A DNA stretch of 64,000 nt from Candidatus Dormiibacterota bacterium (GTDB lineage Bacteria; Chloroflexota; Dormibacteria; CF-121), in contig DATASI010000121.1 of the NCBI GenBank assembly GCA_036269255.1, positions 7,875 to 71,874 on the forward strand, in the 5' to 3' direction. Below the pieces are notes generated by a model. The model searched no databases. It saw only the letters and a program-made list of their open reading frames with translations, and was not told where the DNA came from. Below are positions 14,983-55,422 of the stretch, piece after piece. A program made the position numbers and the translations under genes. The stretch's first letter is position 1. The number at the start of each line of letters is the position of its first letter.

Positions 14983-15444
14983 ATGCGCATGCGCTTCTCG
15001 ATGAAAACCGAATACGGTGTCCGCGCCATCCTCGAGCTGGCCGCGAACGCCGGCCGGGGCACGCTGCAGAGCGCCGAGATCGCTCGGCGGCAGGCGATTC
15101 CCGGGCCGTTCCTCGACCAGGTGCTGATGACGCTGCGCCGCGCCGGCATGATCTCCTCGACGCGAGGGCCGCATGGCGGCCACGCCATCGCGCGGCGGCC
15201 CGATGAGATCCGTCTCGACGAGGTGCTGGATTGCCTGGAGGGAAACGGCCGTGAGGCTCGCGATGGCCACCGTCCGGTTGGCGATGCGCTGGTGCTCGCC
15301 CAGGTGACCGAGCAGGCCGAATCGGCTGCGCGACAGGTGTTCGCCGCCCACACGCTGGCTGACTGCCTGCGCTTGCGGCCGCAGCAGCCGGCGGTCTTTC
15401 ACGGGATCTTCCATCCGGCACGTGGCCGGTCTAAAGGTGCCTGA
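14983..15444 (+). CDS. Rrf2-family transcriptional regulator (non-Fe-S, CymR/NsrR-like)
   Basis: Rrf2 wHTH N-terminus (MKTEYGVRAILELA…SAEIARRQAIPGPFLDQVLMTLRRAGMISSTRGPHGGHAIAR). Only one Cys is present, so it lacks the three-Cys cluster ligands. The start could be ATG 14983, 14989 or 15001. The TGA overlaps the ATG of the next gene. Confidence 0.8.
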   Translation: MRMRFSMKTEYGVRAILELAANAGRGTLQSAEIARRQAIPGPFLDQVLMTLRRAGMISSTRGPHGGHAIARRPDEIRLDEVLDCLEGNGREARDGHRPVGDALVLAQVTEQAESAARQVFAAHTLADCLRLRPQQPAVFHGIFHPARGRSKGA

Positions 15445-17998: not shown

Positions 17999-19096
17999 GT
18001 GAAGGTGCTGATCACCGGTGGAGCCGGCTTCATCGGCCAGCGGACCGCGCAGCTCTTGCTCAAGCAGGGCCACCAGGTCACGGTTCTCGACAACCTGGCG
18101 CCGCCCGCCCACGACGGGCCGCCGGCGCTCCCGGCCGGGATGGAGCTGGTCGAGGGGGACGTGCGCAAGCGCGAGGACTGGGTCAAGGCGATCAAGGACA
18201 ACGAGGTCGTCCTCCACCTGGCCGATCACCACGATTACCTGCCATCGTTCAGCAAGCTTTTCCACGTCAATGCCGTGGGCGCCGGCATTCTCTTCGAGCT
18301 GTTGCTGGACCGCAAGACATCGGTGCGACGGGTCGTCCTCGGGTCCTCGACGGCGGTCTATGGTGAGGGGAAGTATCGCTGCGGAAAGGATGGTGACGTC
18401 TATCCGCATCCGCGGACGGTCGAGGCGCTGGAGCGCGCCATGTGGGATCCGCCATGTCCGATCTGTGGCGGCGCGATCAGCCCGATGGTCACCGACGAAT
18501 CGGTCACCCGCCCGACCAGCGCCTACGGGCTGAGCAAGCTGGCCCAGGAAGACCTCCTGCGGCTGGTGGGAGAGCGCCAGGGGATCGAGTGGGTCATCCT
18601 CCGATATGGGGCCGTCCAGGGCCGGCCGCAGCCGTTCCAGAACGCCTACTTCGGCGCGCTGCGGATCTTCGCCTTGAGGCTCGCGCACAATCAGCCGCCG
18701 ATGCTGCTGGAGGACGGCAACCAGCTGCGCGATTTTGTCGACGTCGAGGACGTGGCGCGGGCCAACCTGACCGCGCTCGGCGACCTCCCCGTCGGCACCT
18801 ACAACGTCGCCAGTGGACGGGCGCATACCCTCATGGACCTGGCGCGCACGCTGCTGCGCGCGGCCAACCGCGACCTGTTACCGGAAACGCCGGGACGCTA
18901 TCGCGTTGGAGACGCCAGGCATGTGGTGCCGGATGTCAGCCGGCTCAAGGCGGCCGGCTGGGAAGCGCAGCTGGGGCTCGAGGCGATGGCGCGCGGCTAC
19001 TGGCAATGGCTGAGCGAGCAGACCAACCTGGATACCTATTTCGAAGGGGCGGAATACTTGATGGAGCGCACCGGAACCGTTCGCGTGTCGCGATGA
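17999..19096 (+). CDS. NAD-dependent epimerase/dehydratase (extended SDR) with a Cys-containing insertion
   Basis: The GGAGFIG N-terminal Rossmann motif and the YGLSK catalytic Y-x3-K are present. There is an inserted segment …YRCGKDG…DPPCPICGG…. Confidence 0.82.
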   Translation: MKVLITGGAGFIGQRTAQLLLKQGHQVTVLDNLAPPAHDGPPALPAGMELVEGDVRKREDWVKAIKDNEVVLHLADHHDYLPSFSKLFHVNAVGAGILFELLLDRKTSVRRVVLGSSTAVYGEGKYRCGKDGDVYPHPRTVEALERAMWDPPCPICGGAISPMVTDESVTRPTSAYGLSKLAQEDLLRLVGERQGIEWVILRYGAVQGRPQPFQNAYFGALRIFALRLAHNQPPMLLEDGNQLRDFVDVEDVARANLTALGDLPVGTYNVASGRAHTLMDLARTLLRAANRDLLPETPGRYRVGDARHVVPDVSRLKAAGWEAQLGLEAMARGYWQWLSEQTNLDTYFEGAEYLMERTGTVRVSR

Positions 19097-19675: not shown

Positions 19676-21295
19676 ATGACACAAACAGCCATCCACGCAC
19701 AGAAGCGGGCAGCATGGTGGCGGATCGACCGGCAGGATCTCTACTGGTTGCTGGCGCTGACCCTGGTTGCCGGCTTCCTGCGCTTTGCCAGCCCGATCTT
19801 TCTGGACGTCTTCAGCCATCCAACCAGCGCCGCGCCAGTCAGCGCCTGGGGCATCGGCCATAACTACCAGGACCCCAAGATCGCGGGACTGGGGAAGCCG
19901 AATCAGATCGCGCCATCCTCGCCCTTCGTCTTCGACGAGCTGTACTTCGCGAACGACGCGCACGACGATATCCTGGGCCGCGATTATTTCGATCCCGAGC
20001 CGCCACTGGCGAAATTGATCATCGCCGTCGGAGAGGTCCTCTTCGGGTTCAACTCCTTCGGCTGGCGGGTGATGGTGGGGCTGTTCGGGACCGCGATGGT
20101 GCCCTTGATGTACCTGCTGGCTCGGCAGCTCCTGGCGGTGCGCTTCTTCGCGATCGCCGCCGGGGTGCTGACGGTCTTCGACGGCATGCTGTTCGTGGAA
20201 TCGCGGACCGCCGTGATCGACATCATTCCGATCGCGCTGACCGTGCTGGTCTACCTGATATTTCATCTGCACCTCAACGCCGACACCTCCGTGCGCCAGC
20301 GCTGGACGATCGTCCTCACCGGCATTCTTATGGGGCTGGCGATCGGTGCCAAGTGGACGGCGATCGCCGCCTACGGCGTCATCATCGCGATCCTGGCGTT
20401 CCGGCTGATCGCCGGCTGGACCCGATACGATCGGCGCACCCTTGGCACGGCGGTGCTCAGCCTGGGGCTGCTCCCGGTGATCTTCTACTCGTTGACCTTC
20501 ATCCGCTACCTGATGATCGAGCACTCGATCACGAGCCTGCCGCAGCCCCCGCTCGCCTTCGCGCCCTTCCATTTCAACCCGGGCGCTGCCTGGACGGACA
20601 TCGCCGAATGGCACCGGCAGACCTGGCTCTATCACATCAACCTGAAGGCCGATCACATCTTCTACAGCCCCTGGTGGAGCTGGCCGCTCGACTTCCGGCC
20701 GGTCGTCTACTACTTCACCAACACCGGGCTGGGCGTTGACCAGTCGACCGGCTCGGCACTGGTCGGCGAGATCTTCAATCTCGGTAACCCGCTGGCCTGG
20801 TGGGGCGGGACCTTCTCGCTGATCGGGCTCGGGATCGGGCTGCCCTGGCTGATCCGCGATTACCGGAGCCGCCGTCGGGCGCAGGGTGCCAGCATCGAAG
20901 GGGCAGACGAGGCGGGACCGGTTGATCAGCGGCTCTATGCATCGCTTTTCTTGTTGACCGCCTTTGTGGCCGCCTGGTTACCGCTGTCGCGCATCCCTCG
21001 CGGACTCTTCCTTTATCACATGCTGGGCGGCCTTCCCGCGATGCTGCTTGCCCTGGCGCTGAGCCTCACCTACCTCAGGTCGTTGAGCGGCGTGCGACCA
21101 GGATTTGCCGCGCGGCTCAGCGGCGCGGTGCCCGCCTACGCCTTCCTGTTGATGGTGATCGCCTTCTTTTTCTACTTCTATCCGCTCTGGACCGGGTTGC
21201 CGCTCACCTCCGACGCGCTCAATGGCCACATCTGGTTTGCCTTCGTCAAACCGTGGCCCAACTGGTGCCTCTGCTACTGGACGAATCCGGGCTAG
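19676..21295 (+). CDS. pmt: Dolichyl/polyprenyl-phosphate-mannose protein O-mannosyltransferase (PMT/GT39 family)
   Basis: Loop-1 DE motif (PFVFDELYFANDAHD), an EPPLAKLIIA motif and multiple TM helices in a GT-C fold. Confidence 0.8.
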   Translation: MTQTAIHAQKRAAWWRIDRQDLYWLLALTLVAGFLRFASPIFLDVFSHPTSAAPVSAWGIGHNYQDPKIAGLGKPNQIAPSSPFVFDELYFANDAHDDILGRDYFDPEPPLAKLIIAVGEVLFGFNSFGWRVMVGLFGTAMVPLMYLLARQLLAVRFFAIAAGVLTVFDGMLFVESRTAVIDIIPIALTVLVYLIFHLHLNADTSVRQRWTIVLTGILMGLAIGAKWTAIAAYGVIIAILAFRLIAGWTRYDRRTLGTAVLSLGLLPVIFYSLTFIRYLMIEHSITSLPQPPLAFAPFHFNPGAAWTDIAEWHRQTWLYHINLKADHIFYSPWWSWPLDFRPVVYYFTNTGLGVDQSTGSALVGEIFNLGNPLAWWGGTFSLIGLGIGLPWLIRDYRSRRRAQGASIEGADEAGPVDQRLYASLFLLTAFVAAWLPLSRIPRGLFLYHMLGGLPAMLLALALSLTYLRSLSGVRPGFAARLSGAVPAYAFLLMVIAFFFYFYPLWTGLPLTSDALNGHIWFAFVKPWPNWCLCYWTNPG

Positions 21296-23232
21296 CGCTC
21301 GTCGCCGGCGGCCTCGTCCTGGGCCTGGGCCTGGCATGGGGAGGGCCGCCCTGGCTCACCGTCGGCGAACGACTGGTGATCGGGATGGTTCTCTCGGTGG
21401 TGAGCCTCACCGTCGGCGGTTACCTGCTGGCGCTGGCGATCGGCATCACGCCCGGCCTGGTGCTGCTACTGGCGGCCGCCGGACTTCTCGGAGGTGGCCT
21501 GCTGCTCGCCCGTCATCGCGGACGGATCGGGCGTGAGGTCCGTCATTTCCGCGAGGAGTTCGTGCTCCACGACCTGGCGCTCCCGGCCGCGGTCGTCGTC
21601 ATCGCGCTCGCGCTCGGCTACCTCTTCGCCCGAGCCGTGGAGATCACCCCCGATGCCTGGCTGAGCCACTACAACAACACGTGGTCGGACTGGTCGTTGC
21701 ATGCCGGCTACGCGACGAGCTTCGTCTACGGGCACAATCTGCCACCTCAGAATCCGCTTTACGCGGGTACGCCCTTCCGCTATCCCCTGGCGCCCGACTT
21801 CGCCAGCTCGATGTTGATCGGTGGTGGCTGGAACATCCCCGCGGCGCTAGCCTGGCCGGGCTGGGCGATGACGGTGCTCGCGCTCAGCGGGCTCATCCTT
21901 TGGGCTCGCCGGCTGACCGGCGGCGTGAGCGCCGGCGTGATCGCCGTCAGCCTGACGCTGCTTGGGGGTGGCGTCGGCTTCTGGTTCTTTTTCGGTGATG
22001 CGGCCCACCTGGGCCTGCTCAACACGCTGCTCCACATTCCTCGGAGCTACGACCGCTTCGACCCGCCCGTCAATATTCAGTGGTACAACCCGATCCTTTC
22101 GTACTACCTGCCGCAACGAACCTTCGTGTTCGGGGCGGCGATGGTGCTGGCGATCGTGTTGCTGATCACGCCGCCCGTTCTACGCACACCCTTCTTTCAA
22201 TGGCGGACAACGCTGGCGACACTCAGCCACTCCTGGCAGCGGCCCGTCTTCAAGAGCGAGGCGGTGGCGTTCGCGGTCGCCGGTGTCGTGGCGGGGCTCT
22301 TGCCCTGGTTTCACGTTCACAGCCTGGTGGCGGTCGGATTGGTGGCGGCCGGCTGGGCGCTCTGTTACCCGCGCCCGGCCTGGATCGGGTTCTTCGCCGC
22401 GATGCTCGTGCTCGCCGTGCCCCGGTTGCTGCTGTCGGTTCCCGGCGACGCCGGCCTGTCCCCGGATCACCAGTACCCTCGCTGGCTGATTGGCTGGATG
22501 TCCGGCGCAGATTCTCCGGTCTGGTTCTGGATCAAGAACACCGGGCTCTTCTGGCCGCTGCTGCTGGTGGCCCTGCTGAGCCCGCTGGCGCTGAACCGGC
22601 GCGCGCGCCTTCTGATTGCGCCGTTCAGCCTGGTGTTCCTGATCGCCAACCTCATCAAGTTCCAGCCGTGGGATTGGGACAACACCAAGCTGCTCGTCTT
22701 CTGGTACCTGGGGAGCGCGGTCGCCGTCGGAGCGCTGCTCGCGCGAATCTGGCGGGCCGGCGTGGCCGGCGGCCTGCTGGCCGGCGCCGGCTGGATCACG
22801 CTGGTCGCCTCCGGGGTGCTCTCGCTGCTGCAGGTGCTCCCGCCGCAGGGCCCGAGCTACGGGTGGTTTTCGAGCGAGGAGGTGCAGCTCGCCGCGCAGG
22901 TGCGGACGGCGACGCCGGCAAAGGCGACCTTCGTCACCGGCGAGGAGCCGAACAATCCGATTGCCGACCTCGCGGGCCGCTCGGTGCTGATCAGCTATCC
23001 GGGGTGGCTGTGGAGCTATGGCATCAACTACGCCCAACGGGAAGCGGACCTGACTCGCATCTACTCGGGAGGCTCTGCGGCACTGGCGCTGCTCCACCAG
23101 TATCACGCCGAGTATCTCGTGGTCGGCCCCAGCGAGCGCGCGACTCTGCGCCCCAACCTCGATTACTTCAATGCGAACTTCCGGCTGGTGCTGCAAAGCC
23201 CGAACTACCAGATCTACCAGGTGCCTCGATGA
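21253..23232 (+). CDS. Large polytopic membrane protein, possibly a GT-C-type glycosyltransferase
   Basis: 659 aa with at least 12 TM helices and conserved-looking loops (WSDWSLHAGYATSFVYGHNLPPQNPLYAG). The start is uncertain; GTG 21253 overlaps pmt by 43 nt. Confidence 0.55.
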   Translation: MAQLVPLLLDESGLALVAGGLVLGLGLAWGGPPWLTVGERLVIGMVLSVVSLTVGGYLLALAIGITPGLVLLLAAAGLLGGGLLLARHRGRIGREVRHFREEFVLHDLALPAAVVVIALALGYLFARAVEITPDAWLSHYNNTWSDWSLHAGYATSFVYGHNLPPQNPLYAGTPFRYPLAPDFASSMLIGGGWNIPAALAWPGWAMTVLALSGLILWARRLTGGVSAGVIAVSLTLLGGGVGFWFFFGDAAHLGLLNTLLHIPRSYDRFDPPVNIQWYNPILSYYLPQRTFVFGAAMVLAIVLLITPPVLRTPFFQWRTTLATLSHSWQRPVFKSEAVAFAVAGVVAGLLPWFHVHSLVAVGLVAAGWALCYPRPAWIGFFAAMLVLAVPRLLLSVPGDAGLSPDHQYPRWLIGWMSGADSPVWFWIKNTGLFWPLLLVALLSPLALNRRARLLIAPFSLVFLIANLIKFQPWDWDNTKLLVFWYLGSAVAVGALLARIWRAGVAGGLLAGAGWITLVASGVLSLLQVLPPQGPSYGWFSSEEVQLAAQVRTATPAKATFVTGEEPNNPIADLAGRSVLISYPGWLWSYGINYAQREADLTRIYSGGSAALALLHQYHAEYLVVGPSERATLRPNLDYFNANFRLVLQSPNYQIYQVPR

Positions 23233-23294
23233 GCCCCCACCCTACCCTCCCCCGCAAGCGGGGGAGGGAAACTGAAGGTCCCTAGAATGCAGCC

Positions 23295-23636
23295 GTGCTG
23301 ACCCGCTTCCTGATCCATATCGTCTCGCTGCTGTTCGTCTTCTATGTCATCTGGCACGTCCACACCGGGATCCTTGGCGCCGCCGTGGTGATGGCCCTCA
23401 TCCTGGCCGTGATCAACACCATCATCCGTCCGGTGCTGATCATGCTCACGCTGCCTGTCACGATCCTGACGCTGGGGCTCTTTGTCGTCATCCTCAACGC
23501 GCTGCTGTTCGCGCTTGCCTTTGCGGTGCTGCAGGGGCTGATGAACGTCCACTTCGACGTGAGCTTCGCCCAGATCGTGCTCGGCTACCTGATCTACGTC
23601 GTCATCAGCATGGTGCTGACGCGGTTGTTCCGCTAA
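23295..23636 (+). CDS. Small membrane protein of the phage-holin-4_2 / YvlD-like family
   Basis: 113 aa with four TM helices and a characteristic NTIIRPVLIMLTLPVTILTLGLFVVILNALLF motif. Confidence 0.55.
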   Translation: MLTRFLIHIVSLLFVFYVIWHVHTGILGAAVVMALILAVINTIIRPVLIMLTLPVTILTLGLFVVILNALLFALAFAVLQGLMNVHFDVSFAQIVLGYLIYVVISMVLTRLFR

Positions 23637-24799
23637 AAGGCCCAGTAACCCCGGCCGAAGGCGAGACCGAAGACGACGAAGGCGACGAGGGATCCGGCAA
23701 CCATCGTCAGATAGAGCCAGCGACTCTCGATCCGCCCGACCAGCAGGAACAGCGGATACATCGCCAGCAGGTACCGCGGGATGCTGAGCCAGAAGGGAAG
23801 AAAGGTCACCATCACCGTCAGCACGGTGGCGTAGACCGCATCCGACGGTCGCAGCCGGAGCCAGCTGAGTGCCGAGACCGCATAGGCGGTGAGCCCGCCG
23901 GCAAGCTCGCCCCCGCCCACGGTGAGCTTCTCCCAGGGAATTCGCCAGCCGATGCTGCTGACGGCGGTCGCGAATCCCACCCAGGGGGCGGCGAGCGCGT
24001 GCGACCAGTGCTCGCGTTGCACGCTGACGAACGCGAACGGGTTTCCGAGCACGAGCTGATTGGTCACAAGATAGGTGGCGAAGCCGAGCACGATCAGGAC
24101 CCCGGCACCCAGCGGCTGCCAGGCCCGGCGCAACGACGGGCGTCCGATCAGCAGCTCGGCCGCGAGAAAGGGGAGCAGGGCCACGCCGGTGAGGCGGGTG
24201 GCGGCGGACAGGCCGCCCAGGATGCCCGACGCGATCCAACGGCGGTGCCGGGCCGCCAGCACGGCGGCGAATGAGAGCGCGCAGAACAGCGCCTCGGTGT
24301 AGCCGACGAGCAGGAAATAGGCGGTCGGGAAAAGGGTGAAGAAGGCGGCGGCGCGGAAGGCGGCTCTGGCATCGCGATCCAGGCGGGCGATCTCATAGAG
24401 GAGGACGGCGGCGGCGACCCCGGCGACATTGCTCACCAGCAGCGCCGCCAGGCGGAGTGGCAGCCCGGCGGTTGCCAGTGCGCCAACCAGCGCCGGGTAG
24501 AGGGGAAAGAACGCGATCAGGTTGCGGGCGTCGCCTGTCGCGCGGTAACCGTTGGCGGCGAGAAAAAGGTAGTGCCTGGCATCCCACTGGTCCCAGCTCC
24601 GGCCGAGGGCCGTCAGGGGGTCCGGGTCCGATCCATAGGCGAGCAGGGTCAGGACCGTCAGCAGCACCTTGACCAGCAGCGCGAGGATCAGCAGGTTGAT
24701 CCAGTCGCGCGGAATCCGCCCCAGGACGCTCGCTGCCGTTAAGGTTCGGGTACGATGCTGCGGCAACAGGCCTTCGGCCGGCTGGCGGCTTGAGCTCAC
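23633..24799 (-). CDS. Membrane mannosyltransferase of the PIG-V/GT76-like family (DUF2029-type)
   Basis: HYLFLAANGY and FFPLYP motifs with multiple TM helices. The 5' end overlaps the divergent IMPase ORF-track start. Confidence 0.6.
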   Translation of the reverse strand: MSSSRQPAEGLLPQHRTRTLTAASVLGRIPRDWINLLILALLVKVLLTVLTLLAYGSDPDPLTALGRSWDQWDARHYLFLAANGYRATGDARNLIAFFPLYPALVGALATAGLPLRLAALLVSNVAGVAAAVLLYEIARLDRDARAAFRAAAFFTLFPTAYFLLVGYTEALFCALSFAAVLAARHRRWIASGILGGLSAATRLTGVALLPFLAAELLIGRPSLRRAWQPLGAGVLIVLGFATYLVTNQLVLGNPFAFVSVQREHWSHALAAPWVGFATAVSSIGWRIPWEKLTVGGGELAGGLTAYAVSALSWLRLRPSDAVYATVLTVMVTFLPFWLSIPRYLLAMYPLFLLVGRIESRWLYLTMVAGSLVAFVVFGLAFGRGYWAF

Positions 24800-24825
24800 C
24801 GAACTGGCTTCCGCTGTTCCGCGAC

Positions 24826-25617
24826 ATGGCGGCCGAGGTCCGGGACGGCGTCACACCACTTGCCGGAAGTGCCAGAGGCCGAGAGGTGGTCGGCGCCGGC
24901 GCCGGCGGCGACCAGACGATCTACCTGGATCAGCTGGCCGAAGCGATCGTGGTCCGCCACCTCGAGCAAGCCTATCGCAGCGGTTTTCGCTTCCACCTGA
25001 TCTCCGAGGAACTCGGCGAGCGTGACTTCGGCGGTTCCTCCCTCATCCTGGTCGATCCGCTCGACGGCAGCTACAACGCGAAGTCCGGGCTGCCATACTA
25101 TGCCGTCGTGCTGGCGGCCACGGAGGGTGACCGATTCGAGGATGTGGTGTTCGGTTACGTGCAGAACCTCGTGACCGGGGACGAGTTTTACGCCGCCCGA
25201 GGCGGCGGAGCGTTTCGCAACGGCCACCGGCTCGCGCCTGAGCCGGTCCCCTTCGACGGGCGCTCGATCCCGCTGGTCCAGCTCGACGCTCCCACCGGGG
25301 TGGAGCCGAGGGGGCGGGCCCTGCCGATCTGCAACCAGGCGGAGAAGATCCGGCAGCTGGGATCGGCGGCACTCAACCTCTGTCACACGGCGGCCGGCGG
25401 CATTGCGCTCCAGGCGACCCCCGCTCCGGTCCGGGCCTTTGACCTGGCCGGTCCACTGCGCATCCTCTGGGAAGCCGGAGGCGTGGCCTCGGACTTCGAA
25501 GGGGGGCCGCTGGAGCAGGTTTCGGTCCGGCTGGATTCGCGCACCACGCTGCTCGCCTCGCTCACACCGGCGATCCACCGGTACGCGTTGCAGCTGATGG
25601 GGGCGGAGGTGACGTGA
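24826..25617 (+). CDS. Inositol monophosphatase / FBPase-family phosphatase
   Basis: Metal-binding motifs ISEE and DPLDGS are present. The start is taken at MAAEVRDG (24826); the track ATG 24790 overlaps the divergent gene. Confidence 0.8.
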   Translation: MAAEVRDGVTPLAGSARGREVVGAGAGGDQTIYLDQLAEAIVVRHLEQAYRSGFRFHLISEELGERDFGGSSLILVDPLDGSYNAKSGLPYYAVVLAATEGDRFEDVVFGYVQNLVTGDEFYAARGGGAFRNGHRLAPEPVPFDGRSIPLVQLDAPTGVEPRGRALPICNQAEKIRQLGSAALNLCHTAAGGIALQATPAPVRAFDLAGPLRILWEAGGVASDFEGGPLEQVSVRLDSRTTLLASLTPAIHRYALQLMGAEVT

Positions 25618-26918
25618 TGCTCGAGCCCGACAAGACAACCTTCATGCTGCTGTCGTTCGAGGGGCCGGATGTTTACTCCCAGGCCGGCGGCCTCGGGGTG
25701 CGGGTCAAGGAGCTCTCGCGGGCGCTCGCCGAGCGAGGCTTTACCACCCACCTGTTCTTTGTCGGGGACCCCAACCTGCCGGCGGATGAGAGCGTGCTCG
25801 ATGGCCGACTCTGGCTGCACCGCTGGAGCCAGTGGATCAGCCGCTACCACCCGGTCGGCGTCTACGACGGCGAGAACGACAAGGTCTCCGATATCAACCG
25901 GAGCCTTCCCGAGACGCTGCTCGACGATTACATCCGGCCTGCGGTCGAGCGGGGCCAGACGGTCGTGATCCTTGGTGAGGAGTGGCACCTCGCGCACGTC
26001 ATGACCCTCATTTCCGATGCGCTGTATTTCGCGGGATTGCGCGATCGCTGCCTGCTCCTCTGGAACGCGAACAATCATTTCTCATTCCACCGAATCAACT
26101 GGGGACAGCTCGCCTTCACGACGACGCTGCTGACCGTGTCCCGCTACATGAAACACATCATGTGGCAGTGGGGCGTGAATCCGATCGTGGTGCCCAACGG
26201 GATCCCAAGCTCGATGATGGCGCGCGTCAGCCAGGCCCAGGTGCGCGCCGTGCGAGGCGCGGCGAACGTCCCCGCCCTGCTCTTCAAGATCGGTCGCTTC
26301 AGCCCGGACAAGCGCTGGCACCAGGCGATCGCCGCGGTGGCCCAGCTCAAGGAACGCGGCGTCGGCACCAGGCTCATCATGCGCGGCGGCCTCGAGCCGT
26401 TTGGCGGCGAGGTGCTCGGACTGGCCGCCCAACTCGACCTCAAGGTGGTCCCGCTCGACCGACGAATCGACGATGTGCCGTCGCTGGTCAGGACGCTGAA
26501 GGACAACCCCGACGCCGACATCTGGAACCTGACGGCCTTTCTACCGGACGACCTATTGCCGGTTCTCTACGCCTCGGCGACGGCCACGCTCGCCAACAGC
26601 GGCCACGAGCCGTTCGGGCTGGTTGGCCTGGAGGCGATGGCCTCCGGCGGTGTGGCGTTCGTCGGCGCCACCGGCGAGGAATACGCGCAGCCGTTCAAGA
26701 ACTCGATCGTGATCGAAACCGACGACGCGGCCGAGATCGTCGCCTACGTTTCCAACCTGGCAGAGCACCCGGAAAATGCCCGCAACCTGCGGATCGCCGC
26801 CCAGCGCACCGCCCATGACTACACCTGGCAGCGCGTCATCGACATCCTCTTACAGCGCCTCGAGTTCGTCGCCCTCAAGCAGGGGCTCAGGCTGCCGGAG
26901 CCCCGCGTCAGCGCGTGA
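25617..26918 (+). CDS. GT4-family glycosyltransferase (retaining alpha-glucosyl/mannosyl transferase)
   Basis: GT-B fold with an N-terminus SFEGPDVYSQAGGLGVRVKELSRALAERG and a C-terminus …GLVGLEAMASGG…. GGAGG lies 7 nt upstream of the ATG, and the start overlaps the IMPase stop. Confidence 0.8.
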   Translation: MLEPDKTTFMLLSFEGPDVYSQAGGLGVRVKELSRALAERGFTTHLFFVGDPNLPADESVLDGRLWLHRWSQWISRYHPVGVYDGENDKVSDINRSLPETLLDDYIRPAVERGQTVVILGEEWHLAHVMTLISDALYFAGLRDRCLLLWNANNHFSFHRINWGQLAFTTTLLTVSRYMKHIMWQWGVNPIVVPNGIPSSMMARVSQAQVRAVRGAANVPALLFKIGRFSPDKRWHQAIAAVAQLKERGVGTRLIMRGGLEPFGGEVLGLAAQLDLKVVPLDRRIDDVPSLVRTLKDNPDADIWNLTAFLPDDLLPVLYASATATLANSGHEPFGLVGLEAMASGGVAFVGATGEEYAQPFKNSIVIETDDAAEIVAYVSNLAEHPENARNLRIAAQRTAHDYTWQRVIDILLQRLEFVALKQGLRLPEPRVSA

Positions 26919-26930
26919 GAAACTAGCCAG

Positions 26931-28136
26931 ATGCCGAACGCGCTCGTGATCTACATGGTGGCCCATCAGCCGCGGCGCATCAAGCTGCCGGCGCAGATGA
27001 TCCAGCGCGGCACGCCGCCGGAAAAGATGGACGCGTTGATCTTCGACGAGGCGATGGATCGCCGTTACTTCGATAAGGTGGCCAGGTACTGCTACCGGCC
27101 GGCGACCGAGATGTTCGCCTCGCTGGCCGCCAAAGGGATGAAGCTCTCGCTCGGATTCTCGGTGTCGTTCCTGCTGCAGATGCAGCGCTTTGGTCCCGAT
27201 GTCCTGCGCGGTTTCCAAAAGCTGGTCGCCCACCCGAACGTCGAGCTGGTCGCCGTCGAGCCCTATCACTCCTTCATCTTTTATCTCGACATCGCCGCCT
27301 TCGCCGAGCGGATGGCCCGGGGCAAGGCGCAGCTGGAAGAGACCTTTCAGAAACCGATCGCGATCACCGACACCACCGAGATGTTCATGTCCAACGACAT
27401 CTATTTCCAGCTGCAGCGGAGCGGCTTCAAGGGCGCGGTCATGGACGGGCGTCCGTGGGTCATGGGATGGCGCGAACCAACCCATCTGTATCGCTATCCA
27501 AACGAGGAGATGCGGCTCTTCACGCGGCACTTCGAGCTGAGCGACGACGTCGGATACCGGTTCAGCAACCGCGACTGGAACGGCTGGCCGCTGATGGCCG
27601 ACACTTACGCCAACTGGGTGCGCCAGGCGATGGGCGAATTCGTCTTCCTGGCCTGGGATTTCGAAACCTTCGGCGAGCATCACCGAGCCGACTCCGGGAT
27701 CTTTCCCTTCATGCACGCGTTGCACGACGACTTCGTCGCCCACAAGATGCGCTACCTCACCCCCTCGGAGGCGCTGGCGGCGTTTCCCAAAGTGCACGAG
27801 ATGCCCCTGCCCGAGTACGGCTGTACCTGGGCGGGCGACGGCGGGATGGACTTCTTTCTCGGCAACGAGGCGCAGCAGGGCATTTTCCGGCTGATGCACC
27901 ACATCTACAACAAAGCCAAGCTGACCGAACATCCACACCTGATGGATATCGCGATGTGGCTGCTGCAATCGGACAATCTCCACCTGATCCAATGGTTCTC
28001 GAAGGCGGGGAGCCAGGCGGAGGTCTCCGCCTACTTCACGCCCGATGAATGGTGGGAGCTGGGCGGGCTGGGGATTCTTCGCGAGCAGCAGCGGGTGTAC
28101 GTCAACTTCCTCCGCGCCATGGACGACTATGCGTAG
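26931..28136 (+). CDS. Glycoside hydrolase family 57 protein
   Basis: GH57 region I (VAHQPRRI) is present, together with an AWDFETFGEHH catalytic-region motif. At 401 aa it is shorter than GH57 branching enzymes. Confidence 0.7.
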   Translation: MPNALVIYMVAHQPRRIKLPAQMIQRGTPPEKMDALIFDEAMDRRYFDKVARYCYRPATEMFASLAAKGMKLSLGFSVSFLLQMQRFGPDVLRGFQKLVAHPNVELVAVEPYHSFIFYLDIAAFAERMARGKAQLEETFQKPIAITDTTEMFMSNDIYFQLQRSGFKGAVMDGRPWVMGWREPTHLYRYPNEEMRLFTRHFELSDDVGYRFSNRDWNGWPLMADTYANWVRQAMGEFVFLAWDFETFGEHHRADSGIFPFMHALHDDFVAHKMRYLTPSEALAAFPKVHEMPLPEYGCTWAGDGGMDFFLGNEAQQGIFRLMHHIYNKAKLTEHPHLMDIAMWLLQSDNLHLIQWFSKAGSQAEVSAYFTPDEWWELGGLGILREQQRVYVNFLRAMDDYA

Positions 28137-28162
28137 CGGGCTGATCCGTAGTACCAGCGGCT

Positions 28163-28633
28163 GCGGGTAAGCGCCTCTTCACGGTCGGTCACTCGACGAG
28201 GAGCGTCGATGAGCTCGCTGCCCTGCTGCACGAGCATGGGGTCACCCAACTCGTCGACGTCCGCCACTATCCGCGGTCCCGCCGCAACCCGCAGGTCAAC
28301 CGCGACACGCTGGAGCGTGAGCTACCAGCCCGGGGAGTCGCCTACGTGTGGGAGGGCGAAACGCTTGGCGGCTTTCGGCCCGGTGGGTACCGGGCGTACA
28401 TGGATTCGGACGATTTCCGCGAAGGTGCCGACCGGCTCGAACGCCTTACCGAGCGGGCGCCGACCGCGATCATGTGCGCCGAAATCGTCTGGTTTCGGTG
28501 CCACCGCCGGTTTATCGCCCGTGAAATGGTGCGCCGCGGTTATCGAGTAACGCACATCGTCAACCGGGGGAAACCCGGATACGAAGAGTCCTTGCCGCCT
28601 GATACTGAGCCGCTTACAATTCGACCGGAATGA
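28163..28633 (+). pseudogene. DUF488-family protein with no canonical start codon for the full-length form
   Basis: Strong DUF488 homology (…RLFTVGHSTRSVDELAALLHEHGVTQLVDVRHYPRSRRNPQVN…AIMCAEIVWFRCHRRFIA…) begins right after a TGA at 28142. No in-frame ATG/GTG/TTG occurs before GTG 28346, which would give only the C-terminal 95 aa. Confidence 0.5.
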
Positions 28634-28634
28634 A

Positions 28635-29066
28635 GTGGAGGGGATGTTGTTGAGCAGTGTTCCTGCTCGCCTTCCCTCGGACGACGTCCCGCCGGTCCTG
28701 GTTGCGGACGATGACCCGGACGTGCGCAGCATGCTGCGGACCCTGCTTGAGCTGGACGGCCACGAGGTGCTGGAGGCCAAGGACGGCGAACAAGCCTGGC
28801 AGGTCTGCCTCGAAACCCAGCCAAGCGTGGTGGTGGCGGACATCCAGATGCCCGGGATCGACGGTCTGGAGCTGTGCCGGAAGATTCGCCAGAGCAAGCA
28901 CTCCACCGATATCAAGGTGATCGTCTACACCGCGGGCATGGCGACGGCCGAGCAGGCCAGGAGCGCCGGCTGTGACGAGTACTTCCTGAAGACCGATCCG
29001 CTGCCGCGCCTGCGCGACAAGGTGCGCCAGTACGTCAGCGCGCGTCCCGGCCGTTCCCCGTCCTGA
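28635..29066 (+). CDS. Stand-alone response-regulator receiver domain (CheY-like)
   Basis: VLVADDDPDVRSMLRTLLELDGHEV…VVVADIQMPGIDGLELCRKIR…KVIVYT contains the phospho-acceptor Asp and the T/K residues. Alternative starts are GTG 28635, ATG 28644 and TTG. Confidence 0.8.
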   Translation: MEGMLLSSVPARLPSDDVPPVLVADDDPDVRSMLRTLLELDGHEVLEAKDGEQAWQVCLETQPSVVVADIQMPGIDGLELCRKIRQSKHSTDIKVIVYTAGMATAEQARSAGCDEYFLKTDPLPRLRDKVRQYVSARPGRSPS

Positions 29067-29151
29067 GCGCCGCTTTTTCCGCCCCTAGCCCGAATACGGC
29101 CTGAATACGGCGGCTGCAAGGTCGGCCCGGGGGGCCGGTTATACACGAGGG

Positions 29152-29823
29152 GTGCCTGCCTTGCCTGCCTTGCCCGTGCCTCCGTTGGCGGCTGTCATCG
29201 ATCTGTCACTGGTCGCCGTGGCGGTGGGGTCGCTGCTGCTGCTGCGCCTTGCGCACGGCGTCCTCCCCTGGGGCCACCTGATGATCGCGGTGGGACCCGA
29301 TGGACGCCCGATGCGACCGCGGGTGAAGTGGCATCTCTGGTCGATCAGCCGCGGGGAATCCCCTCGGGTGGCGGCGCTGGGAGGCTTTGCCTCGGTTACG
29401 CTCGGCGGCGCGGTAGTGCTGGCCGTCGGGCCGCGTCTGGTCGACTCGGTGTTTCGACCGGTGAGCTCCGTCTGGAGCACGCTGATGATGGTCACCCTGG
29501 CGCTGTCGATCATCATGCTTCCGCTGGGGATCACGGTCCTGTTGCGGGCCTTGCTCGATTTGAGCGCGCGCCGCTCGTCGATGGTGGGGACCGTCGTCGG
29601 CATGCGTCGAGACAACGGCGTCTTCGGCCGGACCTACCGGATTGCGGTCCAGGCCGGTGACCGGTCGATGGCGCGCGGCTTGTGGGCCGAATCCTTTCGG
29701 GTCGATCGTCCGACCTTCGAGCGGCTGAGTCCGGGTGACCGGATCAGCGTCGAGTACTCACCGCGGCTTCGCTATGTGTACAGCGCCGTGGTCTCCGAGC
29801 CGCTGAAAAAAGCGGCCGGTTAG
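29152..29823 (+). CDS. Hypothetical membrane protein (3-4 TM helices plus a C-terminal soluble domain)
   Basis: The ORF lies between the receiver gene and the GH57-GT5 fusion. No homology was recognised. The start could be GTG 29152 or TTG 29161. Confidence 0.5.
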   Translation: MPALPALPVPPLAAVIDLSLVAVAVGSLLLLRLAHGVLPWGHLMIAVGPDGRPMRPRVKWHLWSISRGESPRVAALGGFASVTLGGAVVLAVGPRLVDSVFRPVSSVWSTLMMVTLALSIIMLPLGITVLLRALLDLSARRSSMVGTVVGMRRDNGVFGRTYRIAVQAGDRSMARGLWAESFRVDRPTFERLSPGDRISVEYSPRLRYVYSAVVSEPLKKAAG

Positions 29824-29838
29824 CTAGACTTCCTCCCC

Positions 29839-32800
29839 GTGACGCGACCGCTGCATGTGGCTTTTGTCTGGCACATGCACCAGCCCTATTACAAGGACGA
29901 CCTGGAGAATACCTTCCTGCTCCCCTGGGTGCGGCTGCGCTGCGCCAAGGATTATTACAAAATGCCGGCGCTGCTGGACGACTACCCCGGCATCAAGCAG
30001 ACCTTCAACCTGGTGCCGGCGCTGGTCGAGCAGGTCGCCGACTACGCGGCCGGGGGAAGCACCGACGTCTACCTGGAACTTTGTCGCCGCCCGGTCAGCG
30101 AGCTCAGCGGTGAGGAGCGCGCCTTCATCGCGCGCTGGATGACCGAGTCGAGCCAGATCCGACGGGTCCGTCAGTACCCACGCTACCTGGAGCTGGTGCG
30201 CAAGCGGGAGCAGGCGGCCTCGCGTGAGGCGGAGGCGCTGGCTCGACTGTTCTCGGATGCCGAGCTTCGCGACCTCCAGGTCTGGTTCAACCTCTCCTGG
30301 ATCGGTCCCGAGCTGATCGAGCGCGAGCCGGAGATCGCCTCGCTGGTCGCCAAAGGCCGCGACTTTGTCGAGGCGGACAAGGGCCCGATCTTCCGCGTGC
30401 AGCTGGATCAGATTGGAAAGGTCCTGGCCAAATACCGCGAGGTGCAGGCCCGGGGCCAGGCGGAGCTGATCAGCAGCCCCTATTACCATCCGATCCTGCC
30501 GCTGGTCGATGACGTGCGCGTGGCCCGCGTGGCACGCGCCGACCTCGTCCTCCCGCGAGTGCCGTTCCGTCATCCCGACGATGCGCGAGAACAGCTTCGG
30601 CGGGGCATGGACGCCCACCAACAAACCTTCACGACGCGGCCGCGCGGCATCTGGCCGCCTGAGGCGGCGCTCTCCGACGAGGTGCTGTCGCTGGCGGCGG
30701 AGCAGGGCGTCCGCTGGATGGTCGGCGATGAAGGCCTCCTGGCGCGCTCGATCGGCAACGGCCTCCCCCGCGACGGTGAGGGCCGCCTGATGCAGCCCGA
30801 GCTGCTCTATTCGCCGTATCGGGTGGAGACCGACAAAGGGCCGATCGATCTGGTGTTCCGCGATGCCCGCCTGTCCAACGCGATCGGCTTCGAGTACCAG
30901 AACGCGGGATCGGAGGAAGGGGCCAAAGACCTGGTCGACCGGCTCCACGCGATCCAGCACCAGCAGAGCGATGCACCGATGCTGGCGGTGATCGCGCTGG
31001 ATGGGGAAAACTGCTGGGACTTTTACGAGCAGAACGGCAATCCATTCCTTCGCGCGCTCTACGGCAGGCTGAGCCGGGCCCCCGAGCTGAAGACCGTGAC
31101 CGTTTCGGAGTTCCTCGATGAGGTCCCGGCGTCCCGCTCGCTGAGCCGGATCGAGCCTGGCTCCTGGATCAACGCCAGCTTCGACACCTGGGTGGGCGAT
31201 GAGGAACACAACATGGCGTGGGACCGCCTGGCCGAAGCGAGAAATTTTCTCGCGCAACGGCAACGCACCCCGATCAACGCGGCCGCGCTCGAGGCCGCCT
31301 ACCGGGAAGCACTGATCGCGGAAGGCAGCGATTGGTTCTGGTGGTTTGGCCGCTCGCACGACTCGGGCATGGACCAGATCTGGGACAGCCTCTTTCGGCT
31401 CCACTTACGCAACATCTATATGTCGTTGGGCGAGGCGCCCCCGCCGGGGCTCTACCAGCCGATCGTCAAGGACGCACAGGACACCGCCTCCAAACGCCCC
31501 GAGCGCAAGATCAGCCCCAAGCTCAACGGGGTGGTGGACGACGAGGAGTGGCGCGCCGGCGGCTACGTCGACGTCACGGCGCTCTTCGGTGCGATGCATC
31601 CACCACGGGGAGCGCTTCAACGGGTCTGGTTCGGACACGACGACCGCAACCTCTATCTTCGCTTCGACTTACTCCCGGACGGCCGCTCCGATCGATCGAT
31701 CGAGTTGGAGCTGCTATTGAGCGGGCACCATGGGCCATCGTTGCGCTTGCGGGCCAGCCGGGTGGACGGCGCCTTCGATCTGCAGCTGCGGGACAGCACA
31801 CAGAGCAGCGGCGCTCCGCGCTGGTCGAGCCGGGTGCAGGCGCACAAGGCCCTCGCCTTCGCGCTGCCCTTCGACGCCCTCGGCCATGACCCCGGCGACA
31901 CGATCGAGATGGTCGCGATCGCCTACGAAGGCGGAAAAGCGGTGGAGCAGCTGCCGCCGACGGGTGCGATCGCGGTGCGGGTGCCCGGCGAGATCCCCGG
32001 CGAGGGCCGGCAAAAGCCGCTGAAGATCCTGCTGGTTTCGGCCGAGGTGGCGCCGTTCGCCAAGGTCGGCGGGCTGGCCGACGTGGCCGGGGCCCTGCCA
32101 AAAGCCCTGCGCGCGATGGGCCACGACGTGCGGGTGGTGATGCCGCGCTACGGCAGCATCGATGTCGAGAAGTACCGGCTCCACCCCGTGCTCCGCGAAC
32201 TGCCCGTGCCGCTCGCGCACCAGCGGGTCAACGCCAGCGTGCTCGAGGGCCGGATCGGGCAGGACGTCCCCGTCTACTTCATCGACAATCCGCAGTTCTT
32301 CGGCCGCGAGGGCATGTATGGCTTCTGGGATGACGATGCCCGCTTCATCTATTTCAGCCGAGCCGCGCTGGAAATGCTTCGGCCGCTCGGATTCCAGCCT
32401 GACGTCATCCATGTCAACGACTGGCACACGGCGATCATCCCCAACCTGCTGGCGAAGCTTTACGCCGCGGACCCCTTTTACGCCGACATCGCGACCGTGC
32501 TGACGATTCACAACCTGGCGTTCCAGGGCGTCTACGGCTATGGAACCCTGCACCTGGCCGAGCTCGAGCAATGGGGCCTGATCAAATCGGGCATCGCCGG
32601 CCTGGACGACATCGTCAACCTGCTGGGACGCGGTGTCTGGTTCGCCGATGTCGTCAATACCGTCAGCAACCGGTACGCGGAGGAGATCCTGACCCCTGAG
32701 TACGGCGAGCGCATGGACCCGTTGCTGCGGCTCTTCAAGAGCAAGCTGCACGGGATCATCAATGGCATCGACTACGAGGTGTTCAACCCGCAGACGGATG

Positions 32801-33501
32801 CCTCGATCGCGGCGCACTACGAGCTTGGAAGCATCGAGCGGAAGCTGGACAACAAGCGGGCTCTGCAGCGCGAAGTCGGCCTTCCCGCGGACGCGTCGAT
32901 TCCGGTCATCGGCCTGATCTCCCGGCTCTACGACCAGAAAGGGCTGGACCTGATCGCGAACATCATGTGGGGCCTGATGCGCCTCAACCTGCAGCTGGTC
33001 GTCCTGGGTGCCGGCGACGGCCGCTATGAGGAAATGTTCCGCGCCAATGCGCGCGACAATCCGCTGAAGGTTTCGGCCACGATCGGCTTCAAGCCGGTAC
33101 TGGCGCAGCACATTTACGCCGGCTCGGACATCTTCCTGATGCCGTCCCGCTTCGAACCCTGCGGGCTCGGCCAGCTGATCAGCATCCGCTATGGGACGAT
33201 TCCGATCGTCCGCGCCACCGGTGGGCTGGCCGACACGATCGAGGACTGGGACCCGGTCGAGCGGACCGGGAACGGCTTTGTCTTCACCGCCTACGATCAC
33301 TGGGACCTCTACGCCCAGGTGGTCCGCGCCCTGGAGACCTACCGCCAGCCCCAGCTGTGGCAGCGGCTGCAGGCAAATGCGATGTCGACCGACGTCAGCT
33401 GGGCCAACTCGGCCGACAAGTACGCCCGCCTCTACCGGATGGCGACGAGCCGGCATGCCGAAGCCCGCGAGTACTCGGAAGTGCCGACCGGCAGCTGGTG
33501 A
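29839..33501 (+). CDS. 1220-aa fusion of an N-terminal GH57 alpha-glucan-active domain and a C-terminal GT5 glycogen (ADP-glucose) synthase
   Basis: The N-terminus carries all five GH57 conserved regions: WHMHQPYY, ELISSPYYHPILPL, the GIWPPE nucleophile region, IALDGENCWDFY and EGSDWFWWFG. From about residue 735 it reads KILLVSAEVAPFAKVGGLADV…, a canonical GlgA N-terminus, and continues with a full GT-B domain (…PSRFEPCGLGQLISIRYGTIPIVRATGGLADTI…). Confidence 0.85.
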   Translation: MTRPLHVAFVWHMHQPYYKDDLENTFLLPWVRLRCAKDYYKMPALLDDYPGIKQTFNLVPALVEQVADYAAGGSTDVYLELCRRPVSELSGEERAFIARWMTESSQIRRVRQYPRYLELVRKREQAASREAEALARLFSDAELRDLQVWFNLSWIGPELIEREPEIASLVAKGRDFVEADKGPIFRVQLDQIGKVLAKYREVQARGQAELISSPYYHPILPLVDDVRVARVARADLVLPRVPFRHPDDAREQLRRGMDAHQQTFTTRPRGIWPPEAALSDEVLSLAAEQGVRWMVGDEGLLARSIGNGLPRDGEGRLMQPELLYSPYRVETDKGPIDLVFRDARLSNAIGFEYQNAGSEEGAKDLVDRLHAIQHQQSDAPMLAVIALDGENCWDFYEQNGNPFLRALYGRLSRAPELKTVTVSEFLDEVPASRSLSRIEPGSWINASFDTWVGDEEHNMAWDRLAEARNFLAQRQRTPINAAALEAAYREALIAEGSDWFWWFGRSHDSGMDQIWDSLFRLHLRNIYMSLGEAPPPGLYQPIVKDAQDTASKRPERKISPKLNGVVDDEEWRAGGYVDVTALFGAMHPPRGALQRVWFGHDDRNLYLRFDLLPDGRSDRSIELELLLSGHHGPSLRLRASRVDGAFDLQLRDSTQSSGAPRWSSRVQAHKALAFALPFDALGHDPGDTIEMVAIAYEGGKAVEQLPPTGAIAVRVPGEIPGEGRQKPLKILLVSAEVAPFAKVGGLADVAGALPKALRAMGHDVRVVMPRYGSIDVEKYRLHPVLRELPVPLAHQRVNASVLEGRIGQDVPVYFIDNPQFFGREGMYGFWDDDARFIYFSRAALEMLRPLGFQPDVIHVNDWHTAIIPNLLAKLYAADPFYADIATVLTIHNLAFQGVYGYGTLHLAELEQWGLIKSGIAGLDDIVNLLGRGVWFADVVNTVSNRYAEEILTPEYGERMDPLLRLFKSKLHGIINGIDYEVFNPQTDASIAAHYELGSIERKLDNKRALQREVGLPADASIPVIGLISRLYDQKGLDLIANIMWGLMRLNLQLVVLGAGDGRYEEMFRANARDNPLKVSATIGFKPVLAQHIYAGSDIFLMPSRFEPCGLGQLISIRYGTIPIVRATGGLADTIEDWDPVERTGNGFVFTAYDHWDLYAQVVRALETYRQPQLWQRLQANAMSTDVSWANSADKYARLYRMATSRHAEAREYSEVPTGSW

Positions 33502-55416: not shown

Positions 55417-55422
55417 ACAGGA

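Follow-up and report, generated by a model that had tools for sequence, protein, structure and literature searches.

What kind of polysaccharide is made where a gene for a GT4 glycosyltransferase is followed directly by a gene for a short GH57 glycoside hydrolase and, further downstream, by a gene for a GH57-GT5 fusion protein? This question is raised by a stretch of 64,000 nucleotides (positions 7,875 to 71,874 of contig DATASI010000121.1, assembly GCA_036269255.1) from an uncultured bacterium of Candidatus Dormibacterota, which as a whole is referred to below as the window. Our analysis of the window and of related loci concluded, with a probability of roughly 0.6, that the region is the core of a storage alpha-glucan (glycogen-type) locus of Candidatus Dormibacterota, containing two modules that each combine a GT-B synthase with a GH57 enzyme. 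The genes of the region are listed here with their positions in the window, followed by two further genes that are needed below.

24790–25617, plus strand: FBPase/IMPase-family phosphatase of archaeal type, 275 residues (PF00459, 82.6 bits)
25614/25617–26918, plus strand: GT4 glycosyltransferase, 433/434 residues (Glycos_transf_1, 55.7 bits, and Glyco_transf_4, 35.7 bits, both above the cut-offs)
26931–28136, plus strand: short GH57, 401 residues (PF03065, 137.8 bits)
28145–28633, plus strand: DUF488 reading frame, 162 codons (PF04343, 86 bits)
28635–29066, plus strand: stand-alone CheY-like receiver, 140–143 residues (PF00072, 89.5 bits)
29152–29823, plus strand: membrane protein with three hydrophobic segments (3-TM protein), 212–223 residues, 223 in the window
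29839–33501, plus strand: GH57-GT5 (GlgA) fusion, 1220 residues (PF03065, 207.6 bits; PF08323, 260.7 bits)
43392–45995, plus strand: fusion of a nucleotidyltransferase (with an LbH domain) and a phosphoglucomutase (PGM) (PF00483, 186 bits; PGM_PMM_I/II)
23633–24799, minus strand: PIG-V-like GT-C protein, upstream of the phosphatase gene

The genes between 23633 and 33501 all have a G+C content of 0.83–0.88 at the third codon position (GC3) and of 0.38–0.52 at the second (GC2), which is the signature of real genes in this DNA (66% G+C in the window). The signature and the strong domain matches together confirm that the genes are more than chance open reading frames (ORFs). Each gene that an initial annotation of the sequence had named was found in its place in the plus-strand cluster, with Pfam/NCBIfam matches and the GC3 signature. 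The GT4 protein of the window is 100% identical to a public protein (P0271) from a 'Candidatus Dormibacteraeota' metagenome-assembled genome (MAG). A scan of the region for promoters and terminators gave no signal beyond shuffled expectation.

Which of these genes belong together was examined by mapping the window proteins by tblastn onto 85 loci surrounding homologues of the short GH57 (59–94% identity), nearly all of which are labelled as Dormibacterota or as mis-binned 'Chloroflexi'. In every locus whose contig extends far enough, the core order is phosphatase, GT4, short GH57 and GH57-GlgA fusion, so that the cluster proposed in the initial annotation is conserved across the 85 loci rather than scattered among relatives. 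In all Dormibacterota loci long enough to hold it, the phosphatase gene directly precedes GT4; its stop codon overlaps the GT4 start codon (GTGATG), and only 12 nucleotides separate GT4 from the short GH57 gene. The conserved unit is a four-gene operon with the phosphatase gene, and not GT4, as its left border; the phosphatase, which had been placed outside the unit in the initial annotation, is part of the invariant core. One Dormibacterota subclade has two further genes on the opposite strand between GT4 and the short GH57 gene (L031:8359–9959, minus strand, and the same gap in L033, L034 and L035); they encode an EamA-family transporter and a phosphatase of the HAD-IIB (Cof/S6PP-like) type.

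The genes for DUF488, the receiver and the membrane protein are confined to a close clade, whose GH57 proteins are at least 80% identical to that of the window. In a sister clade (about 62% GH57 identity) the four core genes abut with no inserted genes. The three genes were inserted later, in one clade, and the core function does not require them. Directly after the GH57-GlgA fusion gene, 27–28 loci, nearly all of them from the sister clade, carry a gene for GlgP (DUF3417 and Phosphorylase domains) and then one for a nucleotidyltransferase-PGM fusion. The window protein encoded at 43392–45995 is 54.5% identical to this sister-clade fusion and lies about 10 kb downstream of the window's own GH57-GlgA fusion gene. 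The block of PMT-family and PIG-V-like GT-C genes upstream of the operon is found only in the close clade, its place in the sister clade being taken by alpha/beta-hydrolases, and thus the PIG-V-like neighbour pointed out in the initial annotation is not conserved across the phylum.

GT4, which would be the second synthase of the operon, gave only generic GT4 matches in comparisons with Pfam and NCBIfam. The AlphaFold2 (AF2) model of the protein (pLDDT 89.5) was matched by Foldseek to GT-B enzymes of families GT4, GT5 and GT20 at E values of about 1e-18 to 1e-14, as expected of a retaining enzyme with the two-Rossmann GT-B fold. The top matches were Pyrococcus abyssi glycogen synthase (first), sucrose-phosphate synthase (SPS), MshA and GlgM, and the closest solved structures also include starch synthases and OtsA. 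The motifs AGGLG (24), EEWH (122), WNANN (150), TVSRYMK (174), R228/K233 and E332-x7-E340 show no variation among 103 fused homologues, which are described below. Several of these motifs have glycogen-synthase-like equivalents, AGGLG corresponding to KxGGL, EEWH to HDWH and TVSRY to TVSPTY; TVSRY also aligns to TVSNRY of the GlgA domain in the window, in a profile comparison that is weak (E 0.003). By curated Pfam/NCBIfam models, GT4 does not belong to the GlgM, TreT, MshA or BshA families: it scored 31.1 bits against TIGR02149 (GlgM, glgA_Coryne; cut-off 302.4) and 21.6 bits against TIGR02095 (glgA), far under the cut-off of 328. GT4 is a canonical retaining GT-B enzyme, and its closest solved structures belong to producers of alpha-glucans and disaccharide phosphates. 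Its modelled structure and its motifs resemble those of glycogen synthases, a resemblance that would suggest a nucleoside diphosphate (NDP)-glucose donor and an alpha-1,4-glucan acceptor.

The short GH57 contains the conserved regions HQP (12–14), VELV (104), DTTE150MF, WD243FETFGEH and QSD348NLHL. In alignments, E150 (the nucleophile, in conserved sequence region 3, CSR-3) corresponds to E123 of TLGT, the 4-alpha-glucanotransferase from Thermococcus litoralis, and to E256 of the Aquifex amylopullulanase, and D243 (the proton donor, in CSR-4) corresponds to Aquifex D352; D348 is located in CSR-5. The catalytic pair E150/D243 is thus intact in the alignments, and the loss of catalytic residues that had been named as a possible objection to the initial annotation is not found. 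Some more distant paralogues of the short GH57 have lost catalytic residues.

Neither the NCBIfam models (E ≤0.01) nor a phmmer search of the PDB gave a match to the short GH57. A profile of its family matched TLGT, the Aquifex amylopullulanase and GH57 branching enzymes weakly, the matches to branching enzymes in the PDB spanning 85–115 residues. The AF2 model (pLDDT 86.6, pTM 0.88) was matched by Foldseek to GH57 and related GH38 folds only (TM 0.6–0.67, 11–17% identity), with no subfamily preference. The top 25 PDB matches were all GH57 enzymes (TM 0.55–0.67), and the model therefore supports a GH57 fold, with a (beta/alpha)7 barrel and a helical bundle after it.

The specificity of the short GH57 was assessed by reading its fingerprint positions against published GH57 logos. 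In the fingerprint of GH57 alpha-amylases of the Methanocaldococcus jannaschii type, a group of about 414 residues, the residue at position 12 is not aromatic, and Thr is found at 23, Tyr-Tyr at 35–36 and Glu/Gln at 1 (PMC6037648). In the short GH57, position 12 is D and position 23 is T, which fit, but positions 35–36 are HL (H351-L352, with hardly any or no variation) and position 1 is A, which do not. Tyr-Tyr at 35–36 is present in more distant relatives with 27–32% identity to the short GH57, as seen in our first GH57 alignment (A1), which is so diverse that no stretch of it was conserved enough for a locus scan. A GH57 branching enzyme of the type of TK1436, the Thermus thermophilus enzyme and Rv3031 was ruled out by the length of the protein (401 residues versus about 520–560, which include an additional C-terminal domain) and by D instead of Trp at position 12, and was further excluded by T instead of Leu at position 23 and by the lack of an NCBIfam match. 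The fingerprint matches no defined GH57 specificity, and on this basis the protein is placed in an unassigned GH57 subgroup.

Whether GT4 and the short GH57 are functionally connected was addressed by looking beyond Dormibacterota. A search of 1.8 billion representative proteins found an 876-residue protein in which a GT4 domain precedes a GH57 domain of the short type, and with this protein as query more than 100 clusters of GT4-GH57 fusions of 830–960 residues were retrieved. Their sources are Anaerolineae, Ardenticatenaceae, Candidatus Thermoflexus japonica, Rhodothermales, Gemmatimonadota and the isolate Salinibacter sp. 10B (fused gene at L098:10001–12637, MQWC01000004.1; fusion proteins P0410–P0521). 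In 103 full-length fusions, the GT4 motifs GGLG, EWH, NxN, R228/K233 and EX7E are kept, as are HQP, T246, D348 and H351 of the GH57 half; E150 is present in 93 of the 103 and D243 in 101. A linker of 17–32 residues joins the two halves. The fused state is as given by public gene calls. The contigs of several distant homologues are too short to show any context, and since our greedy ORF calling under-called fused genes in metagenome loci, counts of fused versus split genes there are qualitative only.

Adjacent GT4 and short GH57 genes outside Dormibacterota, among others in MAGs of Chloroflexota and Bacillota, have glucan genes among their neighbours. In L094, a MAG, genes for GH15, a GlgA-like transferase and a GH133 debranching enzyme precede adjacent GT4 and short GH57 genes, and in L097, from a MAG annotated as Bacillota, the pair is located between genes for a sugar-1-phosphate nucleotidyltransferase and GH15. 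Two contexts recur in metagenome loci (L101, L113, L114, L115, L117 and L119, and L102, L103, L105, L112 and L169). One consists of TreT, GT4, short GH57, a second, more divergent GH57 of 436 residues and a tandem universal stress protein (Usp); the other consists of an M20 peptidase on the opposite strand, a 147-residue protein, GT4, short GH57, GlgP and an FMN reductase.

Sequence comparison shows that many other bacteria have GT4-GH57 as one fused protein, of which the separate GT4 and short GH57 of Dormibacterota are the split form. Fusion or adjacency, beside glucan enzymes and across phyla, is strong comparative evidence that the two act together, in the metabolism of an alpha-glucan (or of a trehalose-linked glucan). 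It is possible, if doubtful, that the pair is moreover a self-contained and previously unrecognised alpha-glucan-building module of several phyla, in which the GH57 would be a transglycosylase, obligatorily coupled to GT4, that branches or polymerises the GT4 product. Literature searches for a bifunctional GT4-GH57 enzyme or for this locus architecture in Dormibacterota found no description. In two independent Chloroflexota assemblies (L095:9112–9932 and L096:6297–7069), the GT4 gene upstream of the short GH57 gene is split into two ORFs of 123 residues (L095) or 107 residues (L096) and 152 residues, and a GT4-like gene farther downstream likewise seems to be broken up; decay of the genes or a frameshift that recurs could account for this.

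The first synthase-GH57 module of the operon is the fusion protein. Its C-terminal part (about 725–1220) scored 547 bits against TIGR02095 glgA (cut-off 328.45) and is thus a GT5 GlgA. Its N-terminal 525 residues align end to end with structures of the Aquifex aeolicus GH57 amylopullulanase (E 3e-78); E275 and D388 align to the catalytic E256 and D352, the residues mutated in that enzyme. CSR-5 of this domain reads GSDWFWW, and two tryptophans in CSR-5 are the fingerprint that marks amylopullulanases among GH57 enzymes (PMC6037648). A linker or beta-rich region of about 200 residues separates the two parts.

The phosphatase at the head of the operon carries the motifs SEELGE, DPLDGS and FDLAG, and its best PDB matches are AF2372 of Archaeoglobus fulgidus, PH1897 of Pyrococcus horikoshii and MJ0109 of M. 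jannaschii (E 2e-25 to 2e-20). Against NF009321 (bifunctional FBPase/IMPase) it scored 163 bits, below the cut-off of 264. The nucleotidyltransferase-PGM fusion, which would convert glucose-6-phosphate to NDP-glucose in one polypeptide, is the likely supplier of NDP-glucose. The gene for the polyphosphate kinase PPK1 (47385–49607, plus strand) is located just downstream of tRNA-Gly(CCC) (46442–46516) and the PGM fusion gene; genes for two storage polymers, glycogen and polyphosphate, are therefore found within 25 kb.

These components suggest the following pathway. The phosphatase, acting as an FBPase, would supply fructose-6-phosphate from gluconeogenesis, and the PGM-nucleotidyltransferase fusion would turn hexose phosphate into NDP-glucose. 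GlgA and GT4 would each add glucose, with retention, to an alpha-1,4 chain. Each synthase would have a GH57 partner, which is part of the same protein in the case of GlgA and is encoded next door in the case of GT4 (or fused to it in other phyla), and this partner would cut alpha-1,4 chains by a Glu/Asp double displacement and then either transfer them again (branching or disproportionation) or trim them. GlgP would complete the pathway in the sister clade. Because no GH13 branching enzyme is present in the locus, one or both GH57 domains are the obvious branching candidates. The alpha-glucan cluster of non-classical make-up that the initial annotation had proposed is borne out by the GlgA domain, by GlgP in the sister clade and by the NDP-sugar pyrophosphorylase-PGM fusion.

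A number of observations weigh against the glycogen-type reading. A classical branching enzyme may be encoded elsewhere in these genomes. The donor, acceptor and linkage proposed for the two families of GT4 and the short GH57 derive solely from the fold of the proteins and the context of the genes. The matches of GT4 to sucrose-phosphate synthase and MshA are about as good as that to glycogen synthase, and the N-domain of GT4 contains many invariant Arg and Lys residues, which would also suit a phosphorylated acceptor. The phosphatase is translationally coupled to GT4 throughout the phylum, and the HAD-IIB S6PP-like phosphatase gene is inserted beside it in one subclade. In Salinibacter sp. 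10B the fused gene is remote from glycogen genes, its neighbours being a baeRF-family gene and a ferritin/Dps gene, and 26 metagenome loci carry GT4 homologues with no close short GH57 alongside.

Some of these observations would be explained if GT4 were a glycoside-phosphate synthase, which glycosylates a phosphorylated small acceptor such as fructose-6-phosphate, inositol phosphate or glucose-1-phosphate. The IMPase-family enzyme would then dephosphorylate the product to a compatible solute or a primer glycoside, which the short GH57 would hydrolyse or transglycosylate. In addition to the invariant gene overlap, the abundant basic residues and the second phosphatase, this alternative can draw on the best PDB sequence match of GT4, the sucrose-phosphate synthase Tll1590 (E 1.5e-15), and on its best TM-score, to the inositol-phosphate user MshA (TM 0.73/0.80). 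However, these matches span mainly the nucleotide-sugar-binding C-domain, models in Pfam/NCBIfam specific for TreT and SPS give no match, and the nearest relatives of the phosphatase are bifunctional FBPase/IMPases, whose role is simply gluconeogenic. Outside Dormibacterota the GT4-GH57 pair is found without a phosphatase of any kind, together with GlgP, GH15, GH133, TreT or a nucleotidyltransferase. We consider this alternative unlikely, if not negligible.

Quite improbable is a route like that of GlgM and GlgE, in which GT4 would make an activated disaccharide phosphate (for example maltose-1-phosphate), GH57 would polymerise it onto an alpha-glucan, and coupling of the two would channel a toxic intermediate. 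The recurrent fusion of a retaining GT4 to a retaining glycoside hydrolase by a short linker is in keeping with such channelling, as are the invariant basic residues of the GT4 N-domain and the presence of GlgM among the structural neighbours (Foldseek E 1.6e-15; profile E 5.4e-7). Yet GlgM is no nearer to GT4 than a dozen other GT-B enzymes, the score against TIGR02149 is about a tenth of what membership requires (31 bits versus 302), and the locus already contains a canonical ADP-glucose GlgA. GH57 enzymes, moreover, are not known to use a sugar-phosphate donor. The actinobacterial GlgM/GlgE system shares with the present locus a GT4 that works with a retaining transglycosylase of a glycoside hydrolase family in building alpha-glucan; it differs in that the GT4 studied here falls outside the GlgM family, the partner is GH57 and not GH13_3, and no TreS/Pep2 was seen.

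The resemblance to the mycobacterial methylglucose lipopolysaccharide (MGLP) locus noted in the initial annotation would imply a pathway to a polymethylated or lipid-linked glucan of the Rv3032/Rv3031 type, under the control of the orphan receiver. In the mycobacterial locus (Rv3030–Rv3037c), the GT4 Rv3032 and the GH57 Rv3031 presumably both act on alpha-glucan, and the two loci have in common that a GT4 gene directly adjoins a GH57 gene; GT4 also matches the Mycolicibacterium hassiacum methylmannose-polysaccharide mannosyltransferase 7qsg. In contrast to the mycobacterial locus, no methyltransferase or acyltransferase was found among the window ORFs scanned or among the genes called within 10 kb in L001–L005, an absence from the cluster that the initial annotation had already remarked on and that holds in the window flanks and in the relatives. 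The GH57 is a minimal protein of 401 residues in which position 23 is Thr, as in alpha-amylases, and it does not belong to the branching-enzyme type of about 520 residues. The neighbours are genes of glycogen synthesis and degradation, and the receiver gene is lacking in the sister clade as well as in several close loci. An MGLP-like pathway is, on this evidence, very improbable.

Equally hard to maintain is a role in a cell-envelope glycoconjugate, with IMPase supplying inositol and a PimA/PimB-like GT4 acting on a lipid acceptor together with the upstream PMT-family and PIG-V-like GT-C proteins, for which the side-by-side position of IMPase, GT4, both GT-C genes and an epimerase gene in the window and weak PDB matches of GT4 to PimA and PimB (E 6e-4 to 1e-2) might be cited, since those matches are far weaker than the ones to glycogen synthase or SPS, GT4 accompanies the short GH57 and glucan enzymes in other phyla, and the GT-C block gives way to alpha/beta-hydrolases in the sister clade, a clade specificity on account of which a phosphatidylinositol mannoside or lipoglycan pathway that includes the GT-C genes was rejected.

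The three genes inserted in the close clade raise the further question of whether the glycogen-type locus is regulated there. The receiver retains D25, D26, D69, T99 and K119 (the Lys of FLKTD) in 27 distinct orthologues, and thus its phospho-acceptor pocket is intact and it is probably functional. The gene is missing from eight close-clade loci (L011, L015, L021, L023, L027 and L036–L038) as well as from the whole sister clade; it is a late, dispensable insertion. No kinase was found near the receiver among the window ORFs scanned. The nearest histidine kinases among them are encoded at 53097–54200 (near pstS) and at 59521–60858, 24 kb and 30 kb away. The former is a PAS-HisKA kinase beside a pstS-type phosphate ABC transporter (53097–57242), and the latter is a PAS-HisKA_3 kinase beside an OmpR-type regulator (58760–60858). 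The search for a cognate kinase suggested in the initial annotation thus led only to kinases at least 24 kb off in Pho-type and other contexts, and the phosphorelay control of polysaccharide synthesis suggested there is weakly supported, the receiver being variable and clade-restricted.

The gene for the 3-TM protein is found in all close-clade loci with room for it and ends 15 nucleotides before the GH57-GlgA fusion gene. The protein has hydrophobic segments at about 3–39, 72–97 and 103–139 and matched no Pfam family at E ≤0.001; 34 distinct orthologues share the motifs PWGxLxIAVGPDGRPMRPRVxWHLW and PGDRxxxEYSP, in a loop and the soluble C-terminal part. In the close clade, the 3-TM protein may anchor the fusion enzyme or modulate it.

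For DUF488, which the initial annotation had named, a full-length reading frame is present, with the caveat that no start codon precedes its conserved N-terminus. The frame opens after a TGA at 28142–28144, and the conserved motif RLFTVGH begins at 28172. Neither in the window nor in L016 is there an ATG, GTG, TTG, CTG or ATH codon between the opening of the frame and RL(F/Y)TVGH, and the first canonical start in the window is a GTG at 28346; in three further loci, an ATT at the opening of the frame is the sole candidate start. Mechanical ORF lists and public gene calls show only a C-terminal piece of 77–95 residues (77 in the public call). The window bases 28100–28650, which cover this stretch, recur without mismatch in L090, an independent JGI contig. 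Among the loci with no canonical start before the motif, dN/dS is 0.13–0.23 for the whole ORF and 0.12–0.28 for the 58 codons before the first canonical start, which indicates purifying selection. Because of the latter values, the N-terminal part must be translated, or have been translated until very recently, and a decaying pseudogene was excluded even for the part upstream of the first canonical start. A frameshift fusion to GH57 was excluded in the window, where stops occur in both frames between the two ORFs; the frame of DUF488 relative to GH57 varies, being -1 in the window and +1 in L012. About 10 of the roughly 40 close-clade loci contain DUF488 (for example L016:5796–6296, L010/L012:11175–11681 and L024:4771–5277); in L011 it is degenerate.

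The region upstream of the operon (19676–24799) is an envelope glycosylation block that is found only in the close clade. It encodes a PMT-family GT-C protein of 539 residues, a multi-pass membrane protein of 659 residues with no Pfam match, a Phage_holin_4_2-family membrane protein of 113 residues and, on the opposite strand, the PIG-V-like GT-C protein. An NAD-dependent epimerase is encoded at 17999–19096. Farther upstream, 4492–7508 (minus strand) and 15444–17041 (plus strand) contain two adjacent glutamine synthetase genes (437 and 485 residues) and two adjacent ThiF-family genes (267 and 265 residues).

How, then, does the proposed glycogen locus relate to systems that are already known? 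With the classical GlgC-GlgA-GlgB pathway (with GlgP/GlgX) it shares a GT5 GlgA domain, a sugar-1-phosphate nucleotidyltransferase, a phosphoglucomutase and, in the sister clade, GlgP. What sets it apart from that pathway is the fusion of GlgA to an amylopullulanase-type GH57, the additional transferase of family GT4 with a GH57 of its own, the union of pyrophosphorylase and PGM in one protein, the FBPase/IMPase gene at the head of the operon and the lack of a GH13 GlgB in the locus. The A. aeolicus amylopullulanase (PDB 8zyi, 9iht and related entries, released in 2025) has in common with the N-terminal domain of the fusion protein the 525 residues aligned end to end, the catalytic Glu/Asp and the two tryptophans of CSR-5, but in Dormibacterota this domain is covalently joined to a glycogen synthase. 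That junction points to a function in synthesis or remodelling and not in the breakdown of starch.

The arrangement of GT4 and the short GH57 resembles that of archaeal glycogen clusters (Picrophilus torridus and Methanoculleus bourgensis), in which a GT4 gene lies beside that of a GH57 'alpha-amylase' and the role of GT4 has been marked with a question mark (PMC11046441). In the same review, the GH57 'amylases' near GT4 in these clusters were raised as the missing branching enzyme (PMC11046441). Common to both is a GT4 adjoining a GH57 of about 400 residues from the alpha-amylase lineage, and the GH15 or GH133 partners of the archaeal clusters also occur in L094 and L097. The short GH57 of Dormibacterota differs in lacking the alpha-amylase fingerprint (HL for YY; no Glu/Gln at position 1), and the likeness is drawn from the arrangement of the genes.

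In conclusion, Dormibacterota, which are abundant and uncultured soil oligotrophs, would have a glycogen locus in which two modules of a GT-B synthase and a GH57 enzyme stand in place of the textbook GlgA and GlgB. That the phylum stores glycogen has been inferred from lists of its genes (bioRxiv 10.1101/647651), and such storage is thought to aid persistence. GT4-GH57 proteins form a widespread and often fused family with no characterised member. If the GT4-GH57 pair is a glucan-building module as tentatively proposed above, it would be a 'missing branching enzyme' system of the archaeal clusters that is neither GH13 nor a GH57 branching enzyme of the known type, or a GlgM/GlgE-like route on a different scaffold. 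In practical terms the interest is modest; designer starches are produced with GH57 and GT-B enzymes that construct or reshape alpha-glucans. Since cultured carriers exist, among them the cultivable Salinibacter sp. 10B, the role of GT4 and the small GH57 in prokaryotic glycogen clusters is directly testable.

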